DNA from: Candidatus Sulfomarinibacteraceae bacterium
GTDB lineage: Bacteria; Acidobacteriota; Thermoanaerobaculia; Thermoanaerobaculales; Sulfomarinibacteraceae
Direction of reading: 5' to 3'
Length of the DNA: 64,000 bases
Assembly (NCBI GenBank): GCA_963796455.1
Contig: CAWCLO010000007.1
Coordinates: forward strand, 32,001-96,000
Shown piece after piece: positions 443-63,912 of this stretch. The notes beneath the pieces were generated by a model. That model was given only the letters and a program-made list of their open reading frames with translations. It had not been told where the DNA came from and did not search any database. The translations under genes were made by a program, and so were the position numbers. Each line of letters begins with the position of its first letter. The stretch's first letter is position 1.

Positions 443-828
443 GACTCCTCCGTTGACCTGATTGACGTTAGCACGCACCGAGAGACAGGCAGCAGAAGCG
501 GCTCAACGACGAGGTCATGAATCACAATCGCTCTCGTTGTTGGGTTCGGCAATCCGCGCCACTGCTGTCCAGAACAAATCACCAGGTTGAGTTCCCCTAT
601 AGAAAACACAGAGTCTACCGATCGGTAATTGGCATTCCCGGTTCGTGGTTGCCCCTTGCCCGAATTGCAGCGGCAGCGACAGTGCCCAGCGAAGCGACAG
701 CGACAGTGCCCAGCGACAGCGAACAGTGAGCAGCGACAGGAAACGGCGACAGGAAACGGCGACAGGGACAGCGGTCAGGGACGGCGGTCAGTATCCAGCG
801 ACAGCGGTCAGGAGTACAGGCGACGAAG

Positions 829-967
829 TGGCCACCTCCGGGTCGTTCCAAGGAAGGGGTAAGCCGGTGGGCGGCCGATGTCAAGGACAGGCAGGGTGCA
901 GGGCATCCTTGACATCGGCCACCACACCGGCTTGAGGGTATGGGCATGAACGACCCGGAGGTGACCA
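829..967 (+). promoter_or_regulatory. Long nested hairpin covering the RBS/start region of the four-helix-bundle gene
   Basis: 829-848 pairs with 948-967 (19/20); 861-869 with 925-933 (9/9); 873-887 with 906-920 (15/15). Confidence 0.8.
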
Positions 968-1320
968 TGTCCAACGCCGCCACTAACCCCAACCTCGTTG
1001 CCCACTCGAAAGCTCTCGAAGCAGCCGGGATCGCGATCAAGCTTGTTATGAGGGTTCCTGCTCCGCTGAAGTCCATAGCCGATCAGGTGATCCGGTCGGC
1101 AAGTTCTGTCCCTGCTAACTTGGCGGAAGGGCACGGCCGAGTCGGTAAAAACCGGTCGAACCACTGGAGAATCGCCTACGCCTCGGCAAAAGAGGTCGAC
1201 AGCCACTTGCTACTCCTCGCCCACGCCGGGGCAATCAGCCCGAACCGAGCCAGTGAAGCGATGATGGCCTTCGATCAGGTCCGTGCCATGACCTGGCGGC
1301 TGTTGAACCCGAAAGTGTGA
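967..1320 (+). CDS. Four helix bundle protein (23S rRNA intervening-sequence protein / Avd-like family)
   Basis: Family motif DQVIRSASSVPANLAEGHGR...HWRIAYASAKEVDSHL; GGAGG at 957-961 favours ATG 967 over 940. Confidence 0.9.
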   Translation: MSNAATNPNLVAHSKALEAAGIAIKLVMRVPAPLKSIADQVIRSASSVPANLAEGHGRVGKNRSNHWRIAYASAKEVDSHLLLLAHAGAISPNRASEAMMAFDQVRAMTWRLLNPKV

Positions 1321-1437
1321 GCGCTGTTCGCTGCCGCTGATGACTGAACGCTGCCCCTGACTACTGTTCGCTGTTGCTGTCGCTGTCCCTGAACGCTGTC
1401 AGAGATTCTGTCTTGGACTGGAGTGCATCTGGGTATC

Positions 1438-2534: not shown

Positions 2535-3184
2535 CACGGATCACACAGAACGACCCACCGATTTTTTTTGATCTCTCAACAGAAGACCGGGGCCTTCCTG
2601 CCAACGTCGGTTGCCGTGGATTTTCAACGCAAAGGCGCAGAGGCGCAGAGATGCCTGAGACCATCTGGGTCCAGTTGATGCTTTCGTGACACGGGCCGGG
2701 CGACAGCGACAGAATTCAGCGGCAGCGGCAGGGAGCAGCAAACAGGGGAGAATCAGCAATCAGTGTGCAGCGGCAGCGATCAGGAGCACAGGCGACGAAG
2801 TAGCCACATCCGGGTCGTTCAACGGAAGGAATAGCCAGTGGGAGGCCGCTGATGACTGAACGCTGACGCTGCCCCTGAACACTGTCCGAGACACTGTCTT
2901 GGAAGAGGGTGTGAATAGATGAAGGTTGCGCTCCCGACGCGATAACACAACTGCAAGGCAGAATCGGTGTGCCGTAGGCGCACCGGTCGGTGGGAAGCGT
3001 GGCGGCGACGAGCGCTCGCGCTCGGAGACGGCACGCTTCTCACCGGCGACAGGCGATCGAACGATCGCCTGTTGTTCTGCCGCCAAGCATGTCAACACCG
3101 TAAAATCTCGCCAACCGCGCCTGTGCGACTTTGCGTTCTTGGCGTTCTTTGCGGTTCATTCTGTGTTCTTCTGTGTGTTCTGTG
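2535..3184. repeat. Nested inverted repeat arms between convergent genes
   Basis: 2535-2550 vs 3169-3184 (14/16); 2626-2646 vs 3117-3137 (19/21); together they enclose copy B. Confidence 0.7.
2700..2903 (+). mobile_element. Gene-less relative of the four-helix-bundle element (copy B)
   Basis: Core 2781-2820 is 37/40 identical to 809-848; joins the A-left and A-right sequences at GCCG; ends in CTGTCCGAGACACTGTCTTGGA. Confidence 0.7.
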
Positions 3185-8228: not shown

Positions 8229-8788
8229 ATCCATACGTCGATTCCATTTCGGATAGCGAACAGGGACAGCGAATGGGATGGAGGGGTCGAGAGGCGGAAA
8301 TCAGCCATCAGCGTAGTGATTTCAGCGGCCATGGGACAGCGACCAGCATGTCACTTCTGGCGGAGCTCCGGCCTTTGTGGTGCGGCCGTCTCGGCCTGAA
8401 CGGTGAAGCCGGAAGGGGCGCAGCCACAACGGCTGTTCCTATGAGATGAACCACCCGGAGGAGGCTACTTCAGGTCGCCAGGACTCCTGATCGCTGCCGC
8501 CGAGCAGCGCGAGTCGCTGAACCGGGTCGCTGCTCCACTGTCGCTGCCGAAGGACGCTGTCGCCGCAGGATGACAATTCTGGAAAGGGAGCGGAATCGGG
8601 TCAAAGAGCCAACCGCGGCAACAGGATCATGTCAGAGCGGTGCGATTCGAAAACCACGAGATGCAGTTGCAACTAACATCAGGTGACGATCTGTTATGGA
8701 CTAGCAGTAATGCTGGAGATGAACAGTGGAATCCATACGTCGATTCCATTTCCGATCCCGATCCCGTTCCCGAATGGGCGGAGGGGCG
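8229..8788 (+). repeat. Direct repeat pair with an identical 22-mer ATCCATACGTCGATTCCATTTC (8229-8250, 8731-8752)
   Basis: Exact match, each followed by GAT, about three hexamers, CGAATGGG and GGAGGGG; the pair brackets copy C. Confidence 0.8.
8300..8617 (-). mobile_element. Gene-less relative of the four-helix-bundle element with a REP-like palindrome (copy C)
   Basis: Core at 8448-8489 (2-nt insertion); palindrome at 8375-8429; same junction sequences as copy D. Confidence 0.6.
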
Positions 8789-11844: not shown

Positions 11845-11956
11845 CTCCTCTGCTCCTCTGCTCCTCTGCTCCTCTGCTCCTCTGCTCCTCTGCTCCTCTG
11901 CTCCTCTGCTCCTCTGCTCCTCTGCTCCTCTGCTCCTCTGCTCCTCTGCTCCTCTG
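11845..11956 (+). repeat. (CTCCTCTG)x14 tandem array
   Basis: 14 perfect units ending about 50 bp before the OPT start; preceded by AGAACCGTAC-N10-GTTCGTGATAAGG. Confidence 0.97.
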
Positions 11957-12004
11957 CTCCTGATACACTCCCATCGTCCAAAAAGTCCACATGGGGGGGT
12001 ACCG

Positions 12005-14543: not shown

Positions 14544-14699
14544 CTCCTCTGCTCCTCTGCTCCTCTGCTCCTCTGCTCCTCTGCTCCTCTGCTCCTCTGC
14601 TCCTCTGCTCCTCTGCTCCTCTGCTCCTCTGCTCCTCTGCTCCTCTGCTCCTCTCTCTGCTCCTCTGCTCCTCTGCTCCTCTGCTCCTCTGCTCCTCTG
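14544..14699 (+). repeat. (CTCCTCTG) tandem array, 19 units
   Basis: 13 perfect units, one 12-nt variant, then 5 perfect units; same upstream leader as the 11845 array. Confidence 0.97.
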
Positions 14700-32895: not shown

Positions 32896-33370
32896 TGGGG
32901 TTTGAGGCTTGAGGCTTGGATCACTCGTGTCCAAGACAGTGTCTCGGACAGGATTCAGGGACAGCGACGGGGACCGGCTGGCAGCGTCAGGGTTCAGGGA
33001 CAGCGACAGCGAACGGTAGTCAGCGTCAGAGTTCAGTCGGCAGCGTCAGCAATCAGCGATCAGCGACCGGGACAGCGAACAGCACTCACATCTTCGGGGC
33101 TCCGGCCTTTGTGGTGCGGCCGTCTCGGCCGCACGGTGTGCGGGCGAGACGCCTACACCACAACGGCTGTTCCTTCCGCTGAATGACCCGGAGGTGGCCA
33201 CTTCGCCGACTGGAATCCTGATCGCTGCCGCCGCCGCTGTCCTCTGTCGCTGTTCCCTGTCGCTGCCCCTGATCGCTGTTGCCTGTCGCTGACGCTGCAA
33301 ATCGGGAGCGCGATCGGGTGTGGGCCGTTCGCGAACATCTCAAGCGGCAAGCCTCAAGCCTCAAGCCCCA
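32896..33370. repeat. Inverted heptamer arms (CTTGAGG)n...(CCTCAAG)n enclosing copy D
   Basis: 32896-32918 vs 33348-33370: 22/23 complementary. Confidence 0.85.
32930..33320 (-). mobile_element. Gene-less relative of the four-helix-bundle element with a REP-like palindrome (copy D)
   Basis: Core 33181-33220 (35/40); palindrome 33109-33163; gene-end remnant CCGAAGATGTGAGTGCTGTTCGCTG; right-end motif at 32930-32951. Confidence 0.7.
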
Positions 33371-35410: not shown

Positions 35411-35623
35411 CAGCACTCATTTCGCCGGGTTCAACAGGCGCCAGATCGTGGCACGGTCCTGATCGAAGGTATTCATCGTGTCACGGGCGGCCGCCCACCG
35501 GCTACCCATTCTGTTGAACGACCCGGAGGCGGCCACTTCGTCGCCTCGACTCCTGACCGCTGCCGCTGGACGCTGCCGCTGTGGCTGCAATCCGGGCACG
35601 GGCATGGGGCAACCGCGAACCGG
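35411..35623 (-). mobile_element. Internally deleted four-helix-bundle element keeping the 3' end of the gene (copy E)
   Basis: Core 35516-35555 (37/40); encodes ...MNTFDQDRATIWRLLNPAK* versus ...MMAFDQVRAMTWRLLNPKV* in copy A. Confidence 0.8.
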
Positions 35624-38012: not shown

Positions 38013-38606
38013 ATGAGGAATCGACGACTCGATATCGAAGACGGATGGCGGCCGGTCGGTGCCTCGTGGCGACTGGCGGCGACCGTGATCGATATGGCCG
38101 TTTATTGCGGATTGTGCCTGGTGGTCGCGGTTCCGGTGAGCCAGTCCTTTGACTGGAGCGCCATCTGGGGAGGCATCGACGAGATGGCCCTGGCAGCGTC
38201 CGAACCCGCATGGCTCGGCCATGCGTCGTCAATTCTCGGTCTCTGGATCGCGATGTGGTTGTGCTACTTCGTCGTCGGTTGGGGACTGCTCGGAGCGACC
38301 CCCGGGAAGTGGGCGCTCGGTCTCAGAATCATGGACTACCGGCAACGCAGTCCGATCGGAGCCTCACGTTCCGTTCTTCGTTTGGCAGCCTACTGCGTCA
38401 GTTCGGTCACCTTCGAGTGGGGTCATCTCCTGATGCTGATTCGCAGCGACCGCCGAGCCCTGCACGACGTGCTCGCCGGCACCAGGGTGGTCCGTAAATC
38501 GCGCCGCCCGATTCCGGCAGTGTTCGAAGCAGAATCCGAGGCCGTACTCGAAGAAGAGGACGAAACCGAAGCCGACGAACCAACCGAAGTTATCGATCAG
38601 TTCTGA
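38013..38606 (+). CDS. RDD family membrane protein
   Basis: WRLAATVID, GATPGKWALGLRI, RRALHDVLAGTRVV. Confidence 0.88.
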   Translation: MRNRRLDIEDGWRPVGASWRLAATVIDMAVYCGLCLVVAVPVSQSFDWSAIWGGIDEMALAASEPAWLGHASSILGLWIAMWLCYFVVGWGLLGATPGKWALGLRIMDYRQRSPIGASRSVLRLAAYCVSSVTFEWGHLLMLIRSDRRALHDVLAGTRVVRKSRRPIPAVFEAESEAVLEEEDETEADEPTEVIDQF

Positions 38607-38609
38607 GGA

Positions 38610-38718
38610 GGCTTGGGGCTTGGGGCTTGGGGCTTGGGGCTTGGGGCTTGGGGCTTCTAGGAATTCACTGCTCTTCCGACACTGTCAAGCCTCAAGCCCA
38701 AGGTCCCAGGCCTCAAGC
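38610..38718. repeat. (GGGGCTT)x6 array with an inverted heptamer arm, between convergent genes
   Basis: Six GGGG runs at 38615-38653; complementary arm at 38686-38718. Confidence 0.9.
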
Positions 38719-38728
38719 TTTTTGCGCT

Positions 38729-56469: not shown

Positions 56470-56522
56470 TTGTGGTGCAGGCGTCCCGCCTGCATTCTGT
56501 GCGGCCGGGACGGCCGCACCAC
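56470..56522. repeat. REP-like doublet palindrome, same family as those inside copies C and D
   Basis: GTGGTGCAGGCGTCCCGCCTGC...GCGGCCGGGACGGCCGCACCAC. Confidence 0.8.
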
Positions 56523-59658: not shown

Positions 59659-62238
59659 ATGACCGACTCTATTCATAATCTGGGATCCCGAGTCCCCAAA
59701 GGTGGGGTCTCGGGTCCTGACCAGGTTTTCGATATCTTCCTCGATTGGGCGACGGAGGTTGGATTCGATCTTTACCCTGCCCAGGAAGAGGCGCTGCTCG
59801 AGCTGATGGCCGATCGCCACGTAGTGCTCGACACACCGACCGGGTCCGGAAAGTCGCTCGTCGCTCTCGGGCTGCAGTTCCGGGGTCTGTGTGAAGGCCG
59901 CAGGAGCTATTACACGACACCGATCAAGGCCCTCGCAAGCGAAAAGTTTTTTTCCCTCTGTTCGGAACTCGGGGCCGACAACGTGGGCATGTTGACCGGC
60001 GATGCCAGCATCAACCCCGATGCATCGGTCATCTGCTGCACCGCCGAGGTGCTGGCGAATCTGGCGCTCCGCAAGGGGGAAAGCCTCGACGCCCCCTACG
60101 TGATCATGGATGAGTTCCACTACTACGCGGATCGCGACCGCGGGTGGGCGTGGCAGGTACCGCTGATCAGCCTGCCAAAGACCCAGTTCCTCCTGATGTC
60201 GGCCACCCTCGGCGATATGAGCGTGATCATCGAAAAGATCGAGGAAAATACCGGCCGCGAGGCATCCCTCGTCCATTCCGACGTGCGACCCGTGCCGCTC
60301 GATTTTCTCTACCGGGAGACCCCGATTCACGAGACCATCGAGCATCTGATGGAGGTCGACAAGGCGCCGATTTATCTGGTCAATTTCACCCAGCGCGAGT
60401 GTGCCGAGACCGCCCAGAAGCTGACCAGCATGAAGCTCACGACCAAGGAGGAGAAAGCCGCCATTCGCGACGCCGTCGGCGACACCCGCTTCGACACTCC
60501 TTACGGCAAGGAGTTCAAACGATTCCTCGGTTTCGGCATCGGCGTTCACCACGCCGGGCTGCTGCCGAAATACCGCCTCCAGGTCGAACAGCTCGCCCAG
60601 AAGGGCATGCTCAAAGTGATCTCCGGCACCGACACGCTGGGCGTCGGCATCAACATCCCGCTCCGAACCGTGCTCTTCACGAAGCTCGCCAAGTACGACG
60701 GCCGCAAGGTGGGACGGCTCAAGGTTCGCGAGTTCAAACAGATCGCCGGCCGGGCCGGGCGCAAGGGCTTCGATGACGAGGGCAGCGTCGTGGTCCAGGC
60801 ACCGGAAGAGACGATCGAGCGACTCAAGGAGCAACGCAAGGCCGCAGCTGATCCCAAAAGGAAACGTAAAAGTCCACGAAAACAGCCCAAAGCAGGCGAG
60901 GTCTCGTGGTCGGAAGACACCTTCAAGAAACTTGTCGCCGATCCTCCGGAGCGGCTCGTCTCACGATTTCGAATCACTCCCGGGATGTTGGTCGATCTGC
61001 TGCAGAAGGATGCCGCCACCAACGATCCCGAGGCCGGGAATTTTCACTCGGTTCGTGAGTTGATCAGGGGCTGCCACGATGACGAAGCCGGGAAAATGAG
61101 CCATCTCGAGCGCGCCGCCCAACTCGCCCGATCGCTCTACCGGGCCGACATCATCCGAATGGAACGCGATACCACCGGCCGCTACCTTTGGGTCACGGTG
61201 GATGAGGACCTCCAGGTCGACTTCTCTCTCTTTCACAATCTATCGCTCTTTCTGATCGGGGCCATCGAAGGGCTGGACCCCGAAAACCCGGAGCACTCCC
61301 TCGACCTGCTCAGCCTGGTGGAGTCGGTCCTCGAAGACCCGGTGATCATCCTCCGCCGCCAGGTCGACCGTTTGAAGACCGAGCTCATCAATCGCCTCAA
61401 GGCCGAGGGGGTGTCCTACGACGAGCGAATGAACCGGCTCGACGAGGTGACCCACCCGCAACCAATCGCCGATTACATCCACGCCGCCTTCGATCATTTC
61501 TGCCGCGACCACCCGTGGGTCGGCGGTGATCTGGTGCGGCCAAAGTCGGTGGCGCGCGAGATGGTGGAGGAATATCTCAGTTTTACCGACTACGTCCGCA
61601 AATACGGGCTCCAGCGTTCCGAAGGGGTCCTCCTCCGCTATCTGTCGCAGGTCTACAAGACCCTCGACCAGAACGTGCCGGATCAGATCAAGACCGAGGA
61701 CGTCAACGACCTCATCGCCTTCCTGCGCGCCATGCTCGAACGGGTGGACACCAGTCTCATCGAGGAGTGGGAATCGCTACGCCACCCCGAACTCATCCTC
61801 GAAGGCGAAGGAGACGCCAAAACAGTTCATCGGCTACTTGCCGCCAGAGAGCTTCGATCGGACCCGCAGCGCCTGGCCTCGAGACTGCGGGCCGAGATGC
61901 ACCTGCTGGTGGCCGCCCTCAGCCACCGCGATTGGGAGGAGGCTTCGGCCTGCGTTCGTAGGAGCGGCGACCATCCTTCAGCCCTGACCACGCCCGAAGA
62001 TTTCGCCGAAGCGCTGGCTCCGTTTTATGAGGAATTTGATCAGCTGAGGTTTGATCACCAGGCCCGTTTGACCGAACACACTCAAATCAGTGAAACCGGC
62101 AACAACAGATGGAAGGTGGTTCAGATCCTGGTCGATCCCGAAGACGACAATCTGTGGCACATCGAGGGCGAGGTGGATCTTTCGGACGAGGCGAGCATCG
62201 AAGGGCCGCTTGTCGCGGTGAAGCGAATCGGGACATAG
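59659..62238 (+). CDS. Ski2-like DEAD/DEAH helicase with DUF3516
   Basis: PTGSGKS, PIKALASEK, MDEFH, MSAT, HHAGLLP, QIAGRAGRKG, RSEGVLLRYLS, DTSLIEEWE. Confidence 0.9.
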   Translation: MTDSIHNLGSRVPKGGVSGPDQVFDIFLDWATEVGFDLYPAQEEALLELMADRHVVLDTPTGSGKSLVALGLQFRGLCEGRRSYYTTPIKALASEKFFSLCSELGADNVGMLTGDASINPDASVICCTAEVLANLALRKGESLDAPYVIMDEFHYYADRDRGWAWQVPLISLPKTQFLLMSATLGDMSVIIEKIEENTGREASLVHSDVRPVPLDFLYRETPIHETIEHLMEVDKAPIYLVNFTQRECAETAQKLTSMKLTTKEEKAAIRDAVGDTRFDTPYGKEFKRFLGFGIGVHHAGLLPKYRLQVEQLAQKGMLKVISGTDTLGVGINIPLRTVLFTKLAKYDGRKVGRLKVREFKQIAGRAGRKGFDDEGSVVVQAPEETIERLKEQRKAAADPKRKRKSPRKQPKAGEVSWSEDTFKKLVADPPERLVSRFRITPGMLVDLLQKDAATNDPEAGNFHSVRELIRGCHDDEAGKMSHLERAAQLARSLYRADIIRMERDTTGRYLWVTVDEDLQVDFSLFHNLSLFLIGAIEGLDPENPEHSLDLLSLVESVLEDPVIILRRQVDRLKTELINRLKAEGVSYDERMNRLDEVTHPQPIADYIHAAFDHFCRDHPWVGGDLVRPKSVAREMVEEYLSFTDYVRKYGLQRSEGVLLRYLSQVYKTLDQNVPDQIKTEDVNDLIAFLRAMLERVDTSLIEEWESLRHPELILEGEGDAKTVHRLLAARELRSDPQRLASRLRAEMHLLVAALSHRDWEEASACVRRSGDHPSALTTPEDFAEALAPFYEEFDQLRFDHQARLTEHTQISETGNNRWKVVQILVDPEDDNLWHIEGEVDLSDEASIEGPLVAVKRIGT

Positions 62239-62241
62239 GGA

Positions 62242-62325
<84 letters not shown>

Positions 62326-62334
62326 GGGCCGAGT

Positions 62335-62838
62335 TCAGTCCGTTTTCACAAACGCCAAGACTTTGCGGTCTTTTGTAACTCCCGGAAACTGCAACACCCG
62401 ATTGTGCATCGCCACAAAGACCCCCCGGCCGACGAGCCGCGCGGCGAGGAGCGCTTCGATCACGTTCTGCTTGGCATCGGTGTCGCGAAATTCGTAGGGA
62501 CGCATCGCGCCGGTCAGAACCACCGGGATTTCGAGATCGCCGCACTCTCGGCACAACAACTCCCCGGTGTCCTCGAGGGTGTCGGTTCCGTGCAGGATGA
62601 CGATTGCGTCTGATTCGGGAGCGGCATCAAGCACTGCCTGAGCCACGATTTCTCGATCCTCTTCGGTCATATCGAGAGAGTCCTTGTGCATGACATCGAC
62701 ATGGCTGATCACGAGGTCGGGAAGCCGCAAACCGTCCAGGATCACATCCAGGACCGTGTGCTCGTTGCGCAAGCGCCCCTGGAATTCATCATAGGTTTTG
62801 TCGATTGTGCCACCGGTCGTCAGGATCGTCAGTCGCAT
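62335..62838 (-). CDS. Asparaginase N-terminal domain protein (167 aa)
   Basis: TTGGTIDK, KDSLDM, HGTDT, VVLTGAMRP; GAGG RBS before ATG 62838. Confidence 0.88.
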   Translation of the reverse strand: MRLTILTTGGTIDKTYDEFQGRLRNEHTVLDVILDGLRLPDLVISHVDVMHKDSLDMTEEDREIVAQAVLDAAPESDAIVILHGTDTLEDTGELLCRECGDLEIPVVLTGAMRPYEFRDTDAKQNVIEALLAARLVGRGVFVAMHNRVLQFPGVTKDRKVLAFVKTD

Positions 62839-62955
62839 ATCTTCCTCACTGAAGCACTCCGAGTTCGGAGTTCGGAATTCCCGGTCACCAATTGGTGCGA
62901 GCCGGCAACCCAGAATCAAGAGACAATTCCGAACTCCGAACTCCGAACTCCGAAC

Positions 62956-63912
62956 TCAAAATAGTCCAACCCCCCACAAATCGTGCACGTGAAGCACCCC
63001 TTTCACCGGGGCCTCGCCATCACAGACCATGAGGGAGGTGATGCGTTTTTCTTCGAGCAGCTTGAGGGCTGCCGTCGCCAACTCACCCGGAGGGATACAC
63101 ACCCCGCCGCGATGCATCACCTCACCGGCCGTCCGCGCCATCGGGTTCTCGTCACGCTCCATCAAGCGCCGGAGGTCACCATCCGTGACGATCCCGAGCA
63201 ACCGCCCCTCGTCATCTTGGACCGTGGTCAGACCGAGACCCTTGCGGCTCATCTCGTAGATCACGTCCTTCATGGTGGTGCCTTCAGCTACGCGCGGAAT
63301 ATCGTCGCCTGAATGCATCAGGTCTGCGACCGTGAGGAATTTTTTCCCCAATTTGCCACCGGGATGCAGACGGGCAAAATCTTCTTCTTTGAAGCCCTTT
63401 GTGACCGATACCGCCATCGCCAACGCATCGCCGAGCGCGAGACTGGCGGTGGTGGAGGCGGTCGGCGCAAGATTCATCGGACATGCTTCGCGCCGCACCC
63501 CCACATCGAGGTGGAGATCGGCGGCGGTGGCCAGCGCGGAACCGGGGCTCGAGGTCACGGTGATGAGCGAGACTCCAATACGACGCAGAACGGCCAACAA
63601 ATTGAGGATCTCCTCGGTGGTACCCGAGTTGGAAACCGCCACAACCAGATCTTCTTCGGTCACCATCCCGAGATCGCCGTGAATTGCCTCCGCCGGGTGC
63701 ATGAAGAGCGCCGGGGTCCCGGTCGATCGCATCGTGGCCGCGATCTTGCGGCAGATGATCCCCGACTTGCCCATCCCGGTCCAGATGACGCGGCCCCGGC
63801 ACTCGGTGATCATCTCCACCGCCCGGTCGAATTCTTCGCCCAGGCTCTCCATCAGGTTTCTGATGGCGTTGGCCTCGGTCTCGAGCACCTGGCGGGCGAC
63901 ATCCCGGTTCAC
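62956..63912 (-). CDS. kdsD: Arabinose 5-phosphate isomerase (KpsF/GutQ family, SIS plus CBS domains)
   Basis: GMGKSG, HPAEAIHGDLG, APTASTT, HPGGKLG, TDGDLRR; GTG 63912 overlaps the upstream stop (63918 also possible). Confidence 0.93.
   Translation of the reverse strand: MNRDVARQVLETEANAIRNLMESLGEEFDRAVEMITECRGRVIWTGMGKSGIICRKIAATMRSTGTPALFMHPAEAIHGDLGMVTEEDLVVAVSNSGTTEEILNLLAVLRRIGVSLITVTSSPGSALATAADLHLDVGVRREACPMNLAPTASTTASLALGDALAMAVSVTKGFKEEDFARLHPGGKLGKKFLTVADLMHSGDDIPRVAEGTTMKDVIYEMSRKGLGLTTVQDDEGRLLGIVTDGDLRRLMERDENPMARTAGEVMHRGGVCIPPGELATAALKLLEEKRITSLMVCDGEAPVKGVLHVHDLWGVGLF

Follow-up and report, generated by a model that had tools for sequence, protein, structure and literature searches.

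The closest described counterparts of the leader analyzed here are the Frpo and ssi elements, single-stranded DNA promoters in the leading regions of F, ColIb-P9, and pESBL (PMC9849209, PMC11541004, PMC12672017). In these papers, whose supplements list further candidate promoters, such promoters have so far been shown on conjugative plasmids only, and Frpo rebuilds canonical promoter boxes (PMC9849209). As for the carrier, Table 1 of PMC2266710 gives the IS4Sa subgroup of insertion sequences CA-6-T ends and 8-10-bp target duplications, which the cassette described below fits. The protein family concerned is represented in the Coxiella 23S rRNA intervening sequence, in the account of which (PMC4990558) the Shine-Dalgarno (SD) sequence is lost upon excision by RNase III and the gene is decaying.

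Our locus lies in a window of 64,000 nucleotides, that is, the whole stretch of DNA that was analyzed, in which a gene encoding a four-helix-bundle protein is preceded by a nested hairpin. The explanation that we find best, with a probability of roughly 55%, is that this hairpin is a fold-back promoter located on the template (minus) strand of the gene. Leader and gene belong to a cassette located between protein-coding genes, whose parts are given in Table 1 together with gene-less and deleted copies from the window.

Table 1. Features of the leader, the cassette, and its deleted copies, in window coordinates
Feature	Position	Strand	Remarks
Whole cassette, 866 bp, transposase-less, with IS4-type terminal inverted repeats	560..1425	+	No target duplication at this copy
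Left terminal inverted repeat	560..576	+	Matched, in a same-genus genome, by the end of an IS4-family element on the downstream side of its transposase
Left arm, degenerate 6-7-nt CAG-type repeats	660..826 (approximate limits)	+	
Outer 5' arm	829..848	+	Partner of 948-967; covers the SD in read-through RNA; would supply the non-template strand of the downstream duplex in the proposed fold-back promoter
Unpaired loop, predicted non-template strand of bubble	850..860	-	
-10-like hexamer TACCCC	856..861	-	T-12 and A-11 conserved; no -7T
17-nt spacer arm (16 in most copies)	862..878	-	Covaries with 915-932
-35 hexamer TTGACA, predicted non-template arm	879..884	-	
Hairpin tip	888..905	.	Branched in relatives, where many of the mini-hairpins have GNA triloops; this copy has no such triloop
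Opposed TTGACA	909..914	+	Complement pairs with the minus-arm -35; TA never after it
Unpaired loop, predicted template strand of bubble	934..946	-	Predicted start at 944-946
In-frame upstream ATG, at bubble edge	946..948	+	In 55/56 intact copies; candidate leaderless start
Outer 3' arm	948..967	+	Contains SD 957-961; extends to second ATG
Four-helix-bundle gene (PF05635, TIGR02436)	967..1320	+	117 aa counted from second ATG
Right repeat arm, inverted relative to left arm	1322..1400 (approximate limits)	+	
Right terminal inverted repeat	1409..1425	+	
Gene-less copy with outer arm and right end	2760..2911 (approximate left limit)	+	
Degenerate gene-less copy, palindrome-replaced subfamily	8361..8502 (approximate)	-	
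Gene-less copy, palindrome-replaced subfamily	32922..33297 (approximate left limit)	-	
Internally deleted copy, inner stem fused to gene 3' end	35411..35575 (approximate)	-	

Genome-wide, the left core of the cassette is present in 194 copies; the gene is intact in 56 of them, another 40 copies are partial or broken, and 98 are gene-less. Among the 73 copies with both ends, 38 are flanked by a 9-bp target duplication with at most one mismatch, a count to be read with the proviso that many targets are 7-nt tandem repeats able to mimic duplications. Such repeats are frequent insertion sites of the cassette throughout the genome. A 1411-bp element that has the same ends and encodes a transposase (DUF4372 and DDE_Tnp_1) occurs in a genome of the same genus. 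In our assembly, which is 90.5% complete, that transposase has no tblastn match, and the sole DDE_Tnp_1 gene is without cassette ends. Judged from its ends, the carrier is a MIC-like, IS4-derived non-autonomous cassette, MIC231 being reportedly a mobile insertion cassette. We rejected retro-mobility, since RVT_1 has no match in the same 90.5% complete assembly and the ends and duplications point to DDE transposition. Linkage among the copies falls to background within ~50 bp, and the copies are mosaic.

Several other observations concern the cassette and its distribution. The close relatives are labeled Ca. Sulfomarinibacteraceae and Thermoanaerobaculia. Same-genus genomes contain miniature elements of 300-390 bp that have the same IS4 ends and are without the hairpin tip (eleven loci), and in other species the leader and gene core apparently lie within different, GGYTCATCCG-like ends (flanks of five loci), which suggests that this core recruits the ends of different insertion sequences. 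Of the 56 intact cassettes, 37 point against the gene that follows them. Pairing is predicted between the two repeat arms, left and right, which would allow the whole cassette to fold as DNA with the gene in the loop, at about -195 kcal/mol. The window contains further simple-repeat arrays (11848-11959, 14547-14694, 38601-38723, and 62228-62962), some of which are inverted pairs flanking unrelated genes or nothing. In a sample of 200 other genomes of the phylum, a single one gave a match at E 1e-15, and plasmid searches returned 1, 2, and 2 records. On viral contigs, we found no relative of the four-helix-bundle protein, and none of 240 pattern matches adjoins one. A literature search over titles and abstract openings, with most subscription papers outside its coverage, found no paper on the leader or the cassette.

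The hairpin itself had been noticed in a preliminary description of the window, with an outer stem of 19/20 pairs, inner stems of 9/9 and 15/15 pairs, and two opposed TTGACA hexamers, and this stood when we rechecked it, the inner stems lying at 861-869 with 925-933 (9/9) and 873-887 with 906-920 (15/15). As RNA, it folds with -97 kcal/mol (z -8.7), which was equaled by none of 200 shuffled sequences; the minus strand folded as DNA has a z of -11.7. Paired positions diverge by 1.2% among the 56 intact copies and unpaired positions by 9.2%. Across 25 leaders, chosen to span the available genomes, 96.8% of the cells pair, and 23 of 44 pairs have changed on both sides. This covariation, which had been suggested as a check across homologous loci, was matched by 0/500 shuffles, with slid controls at 25-44%. 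Compensatory change is found mostly in the spacer stem (15 of 24 pairs), the TTGAC columns are nearly invariant, and the changes in the outer stem come largely from two sequences. The hairpin is thus a real conserved structure, far above chance and covarying across relatives. Masking of the SD, the central claim of the preliminary description, agrees with prediction, since in the folded RNA the SD has an unpaired probability of ~0.04 and the GGAGG region is ~96% paired. We consider this masking true yet probably secondary.

The downstream protein scores above the curated cut-off of the PF05635/TIGR02436 profile, and its predicted structure resembles Xcc0516, BT_0352, and Avd, with a TM of ~0.8. 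The 55 genes compared have a mean identity of 89.7% and a dN/dS of 0.14 (0.43 for private changes), which together with the decay of linkage argues that the protein matters and that the copies recombine. The gene is under purifying selection although its start is predicted to be locked, and we found no promoter facing it. Of the 58 open full-length ORFs, 57 have the masking arm in cis. The lone open ORF without it (G000 C3, near 167000 on the minus strand) has also lost the inner 5' stem and has several private amino acid changes. Among distant PF05635 genes (<45% identity), 18 of 18 are without the TTGAC palindrome. That a read-through mRNA would be translationally silent, as had been proposed, is consistent with the predicted burial of SD and start, with the selected stems, and with the arm being in cis. 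The aside that the gene might be expressed from a start inside the hairpin was probably the key point.

Evidence for such a start comes from comparing the two arms, both scored by one rule: TTGACA, 16-17 nt, and then TA. The minus arm has TA at -12/-11 in 53/54 own copies and 60/63 relatives (113/117), while the plus arm has it in 0/56 and 0/64 (0/120), counts that, like all those given here, overstate independence since copies and genomes are related. In other genera, TA is found in the minus arm in 8/14 and in the plus arm in 0/14. Neither arm has a canonical -10, as the preliminary description had observed in finding none convincing; what it had overlooked is this near-invariant TA, 16-17 nt past the minus-strand TTGACA. 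A T at -7, which 17 of 20 host tRNA promoters have, is found in 0/54 own copies and 7/63 relatives, and in duplex DNA the minus-arm TTGACA/TA points away from the gene. Two candidates were rejected here: a conventional promoter on either arm, given that there is no canonical -10 and -7T is absent, and an invertible switch that would place TA before the gene, which is found so in none of the intact copies (0/56 and 0/64).

In the folded minus strand, T-12 is paired and A-11 is mismatched. The loop on the template side measures 12-15 nt and the other mostly 11-12 nt, both being G/A-rich on the plus strand. Of 93 loci from 30 genome labels, 85 have an ATG at +1 to +4, and it is in frame in 84. 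This set was selected for a paired minus-arm -35 and an A at -11 (28 rows were dropped, 15 for an unpaired -35 and 13 for other reasons) and so cannot test either. The stem is without an SD in 7/93 loci, including five of the six loci of one genome from another family, where the ATG persists. Judged from these seven loci of other lineages, which keep the fold, SD masking is not the deepest conserved feature; an SD that has gone from the stem while the ATG is kept fits a leaderless mRNA.

The strands differ in other respects as well. When the loci are anchored in a strand-neutral manner, seven genomes have CTGAC or GTGAC in the plus arm and keep TT in the minus arm, and the minus-arm -35 is altered elsewhere in four; such changes are often G.T wobbles on the minus strand. 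In a separate count of mismatches, A.C on plus (G.T on minus) exceeds the reverse by 33:16 per genome, or by 21:13 in a hand count in which each column-type is counted once. The minus strand is the better DNA folder in 47/54 own copies and 55/63 relatives. GNA loops are stable in DNA; GNA or complementary triloops make up 31 of 93 distinct tip loops (12.5% expected), the GNA loops being on minus in 15 genomes and on plus in 7. The intact copies show no bias in replication orientation (31/56), on which ground we rejected lagging-strand activation. Of 16 RNA runs listed, 7 contained 4-6% of the sequence words, and the four inspected are contigs of related elements, uninformative on strand and start. 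ComEC and DprA are present in the genome, which is weak support since they were also matched in 10 and 11 of 14 control genomes. In one subfamily (L030, L035, L043, and L048, 1330-1503), the outer stem is kept but the inner stem is entirely different and has no TTGAC, so that the promoter module may have been swapped.

We propose that, when the minus strand folds on itself, the arm with the TA would become the non-template strand, and the template strand of the gene would serve as template. In this fold, RNA polymerase would meet a duplex -35, followed by a spacer of 16-17 bp, an -11A left unpaired, and an already open bubble, with the outer stem as downstream duplex. Open complexes of RNA polymerase have this overall shape. 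Polymerase would bind and start at ~944-946, producing an mRNA without the masking arm, which could be translated either leaderless from ATG 946 or SD-led from ATG 967. Duplex DNA would be silent, since neither arm has a -7T, and the same outer stem would, as a second effect, silence read-through RNA. Candidate triggers are DNA uptake, repair gaps, and hairpin extrusion or a transposition intermediate.

The alternative that survives best, although we consider it unlikely, is that the hairpin acts as RNA, in a leader keeping read-through transcripts silent in cis, and that the gene is expressed upon RNA refolding, processing, or protein binding. Insertion sequences such as IS10, IS50, and IS200 shield the start of their transposase in a comparable manner. 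The almost always paired SD, the conserved and covarying stems, and the arm accompanying all but one of the open ORFs would suit this as well; moreover, 28 of the 56 intact copies have an upstream gene reading into them, RNase III is encoded in the genome, and the outer stem of relatives often stops exactly at the second ATG. An RNA leader leaves unexplained why TTGAC is fixed in both arms, why the spacing is 16-17, why TA is one-sided, why wobbles are biased to minus, and why some lineages have lost the SD from the stem. In addition, RNA fold energies do not favor the plus strand (7/56 own copies, 28/72 relatives), and, were the inner stem cut, the SD would still be covered by the outer duplex.

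Similar modules in other, unrelated mobile DNA count in favor of the fold-back promoter and also bear on a second alternative. A tip-only pattern matched at least 120 metagenome loci, 3 of which adjoin a four-helix-bundle gene among the matches listed, and among the matches listed 46 of 93 distinct ones have the spacer stem. Examples that share the stem-bubble-stem fold adjoin NikA/MobC, DUF961/YdcP, DUF7768, and ParB-like genes; another stands after an IS110 transposase. In these folded examples, the outer stem is not over the start codon and contains no SD, which argues for a role at the DNA level. In 22 unrelated metagenome clusters, TA is on the left in 5, on the right in 2, on both sides in 4, and on neither in 11; since it is not consistently one-sided, the module may serve more than one purpose.

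Conjugative-type elements have the TTGAC module near NikA/MobC, YdcP/DUF961, MobT, ParB-like, and DUF7768 genes (L291, L298, L249, L321, and L424, ~700-750; L536, 5001-5149). In L424, one arm is a canonical TTGACA-17-TAGAAT and the other is without a -10, and L298 and L249 have the module in opposite orientations relative to the same genes. After IS110-type transposases (L535, 3980-4090; L302, 650-800), the module stands just before a non-coding region that we take, from its resemblance, to be bridge-RNA-like, and it may act there as a promoter for that RNA.

The folded DNA might serve in binding or recombination, or as a decoy or primer-making site for polymerase, and in this way aid spread or copying of the cassette without making the mRNA. 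Modules close to NikA/MobC, YdcP, and MobT genes in conjugative elements, and one after an IS110 transposase, would be in keeping with this, as would the mosaic copies with their rapid loss of linkage, the deletions that begin in the stem, and the priming of replication by Frpo described in PMC12672017. We nevertheless regard it as improbable, since an ATG at +1 to +4 points to mRNA synthesis and gene-less copies without the hairpin have reached at least 70, so the hairpin is not needed for transposition.

Less probable still is that an antisense read-through RNA folds in a 6S-like manner and is itself a template or decoy for polymerase. The leader resembles 6S RNA in its stem-bubble-stem shape, the minus wobble bias suits RNA equally to DNA, and the intact copies between tandem genes are antisense in 16 cases vs. 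sense in 7. However, sequence-specific reading of TTGACA is not expected in an RNA helix, DNA-type triloops are enriched, and Rfam returned only three weak matches, to miRNA precursors, all under the gathering score.

The remaining alternative concerns the deleted copies, all of which had been thought to keep the masking strand. This is true for the four in the window, but not genome-wide: when deleted copies were sought by the two ends instead of the arm, the 101 elements of <1 kb included 60 deleted ones, of which 46 have the arm in sense, 2 have it inverted, and 12 have none. Of the 46, 29 are members of a single subfamily, whose copies have another palindrome in place of hairpin and gene. 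Left deletion breakpoints fall at 876-879, inside the inner stem, in 19/53, and this clustering indicates that retention of the outer arm is mostly a matter of geometry. For the 15-nt core of the arm, divergence per site is 0.017 among intact copies but 0.066 within the large gene-less subfamily; the ends diverge alike (0.092/0.130 intact vs. 0.105/0.133 gene-less), and perfect arms are found in 43/56 intact vs. 27/70 gene-less copies. Since the arm decays faster without the gene, it is held mainly by its partner in cis. Weak selection may still act on the gene-less arm, judging from a divergence that remains below that of the flanks (0.066 vs. 0.105-0.133). By rough gene calls, 35/70 gene-less copies are sense to the upstream gene. 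A 53-nt palindrome (33111-33163 and 56470-56522) replaces hairpin and gene in ~70 copies and is also found alone.

That antisense RNA from gene-less copies represses intact copies in trans, as proposed in the preliminary description, is the least probable main function of all and is unsupported by these data: an mRNA from 944-946 would expose exactly the target of the arm, pairing is physically possible (predicted duplex ~-32 kcal/mol), and the arm is partly unpaired in gene-less copies (0.28-0.34 vs. 0.03) and kept by most deleted ones, but it decays ~4x faster without the gene, is missing in sense from 14/60, shows no sense bias, and owes its retention mostly to the breakpoints.

The fold-back promoter may have wider implications. 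We advance more tentatively, at somewhat less than even odds, that there is a widespread class of pre-melted fold-back promoters beyond plasmid leading regions, in which a paired TTGAC, a spacer of 16-17 bp, a lone -11A, and a bubble replace the -10, and that expression of the Avd-like nucleic-acid-binding gene is confined to times when the cassette DNA is single-stranded or extruded, by way of a leaderless mRNA begun within the very hairpin that keeps all other transcripts silent. If true, this would explain how such genes look silent yet stay selected and would provide a testable handle on the standalone function of the S23p/Avd-like four-helix-bundle family. Dozens of natural variants already show which bases matter.

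Known systems share one or another of these features. IS10 RNA-OUT and type I antitoxins exert antisense control; as in these, a strand of our leader is complementary to the region of the translation start, but the two complementary parts sit in cis on one strand, and we found neither a promoter nor selection for a separate antisense RNA, the arm decaying in gene-less copies and showing no orientation bias. The S23p intervening sequences of 23S rRNA, as described for Coxiella (PMC4990558), have the same protein family, a long terminal stem at the SD region, and an apparently silenced gene. In contrast, the gene of our cassette is intergenic, mobile, and under purifying selection, not within a 23S rRNA gene, and the masking stem does not enclose it but lies wholly on its upstream side and across its start. 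With MICs and other non-autonomous IS4-family elements, with ends of the IS4Sa type (PMC2266710), the cassette shares CA-6-T ends, 9-bp duplications, and a passenger in place of a transposase. It differs from MICs in its four-helix-bundle passenger, folded leader, inverted repeat arms, and >150 copies, and in that the cognate transposase is seen in a relative and not in this assembly.

It is to Frpo/ssi that the leader comes closest, and by analogy it likely works as these promoters do. As in Frpo/ssi, a long imperfect stem-loop stands upstream of a small gene, one strand would rebuild by folding a duplex -35 with a 16-18-bp spacer, and duplex DNA is predicted to be silent. Unlike in Frpo/ssi, there is no canonical -10 but T-12/A-11 only, with a fixed bubble of 11-15 nt instead, the start region of the gene itself forms the downstream duplex, and the setting is a dispersed chromosomal IS-derived cassette with no conjugative phase seen. 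Since it differs from Frpo/ssi in two defining features, the -10 and the setting, we do not class the leader, whose promoter activity is a prediction, as a member of Frpo/ssi. If the prediction is true, it would be a chromosomal, multicopy version in which a bubble replaces the -10, and a new link of gene expression to the state of the DNA.
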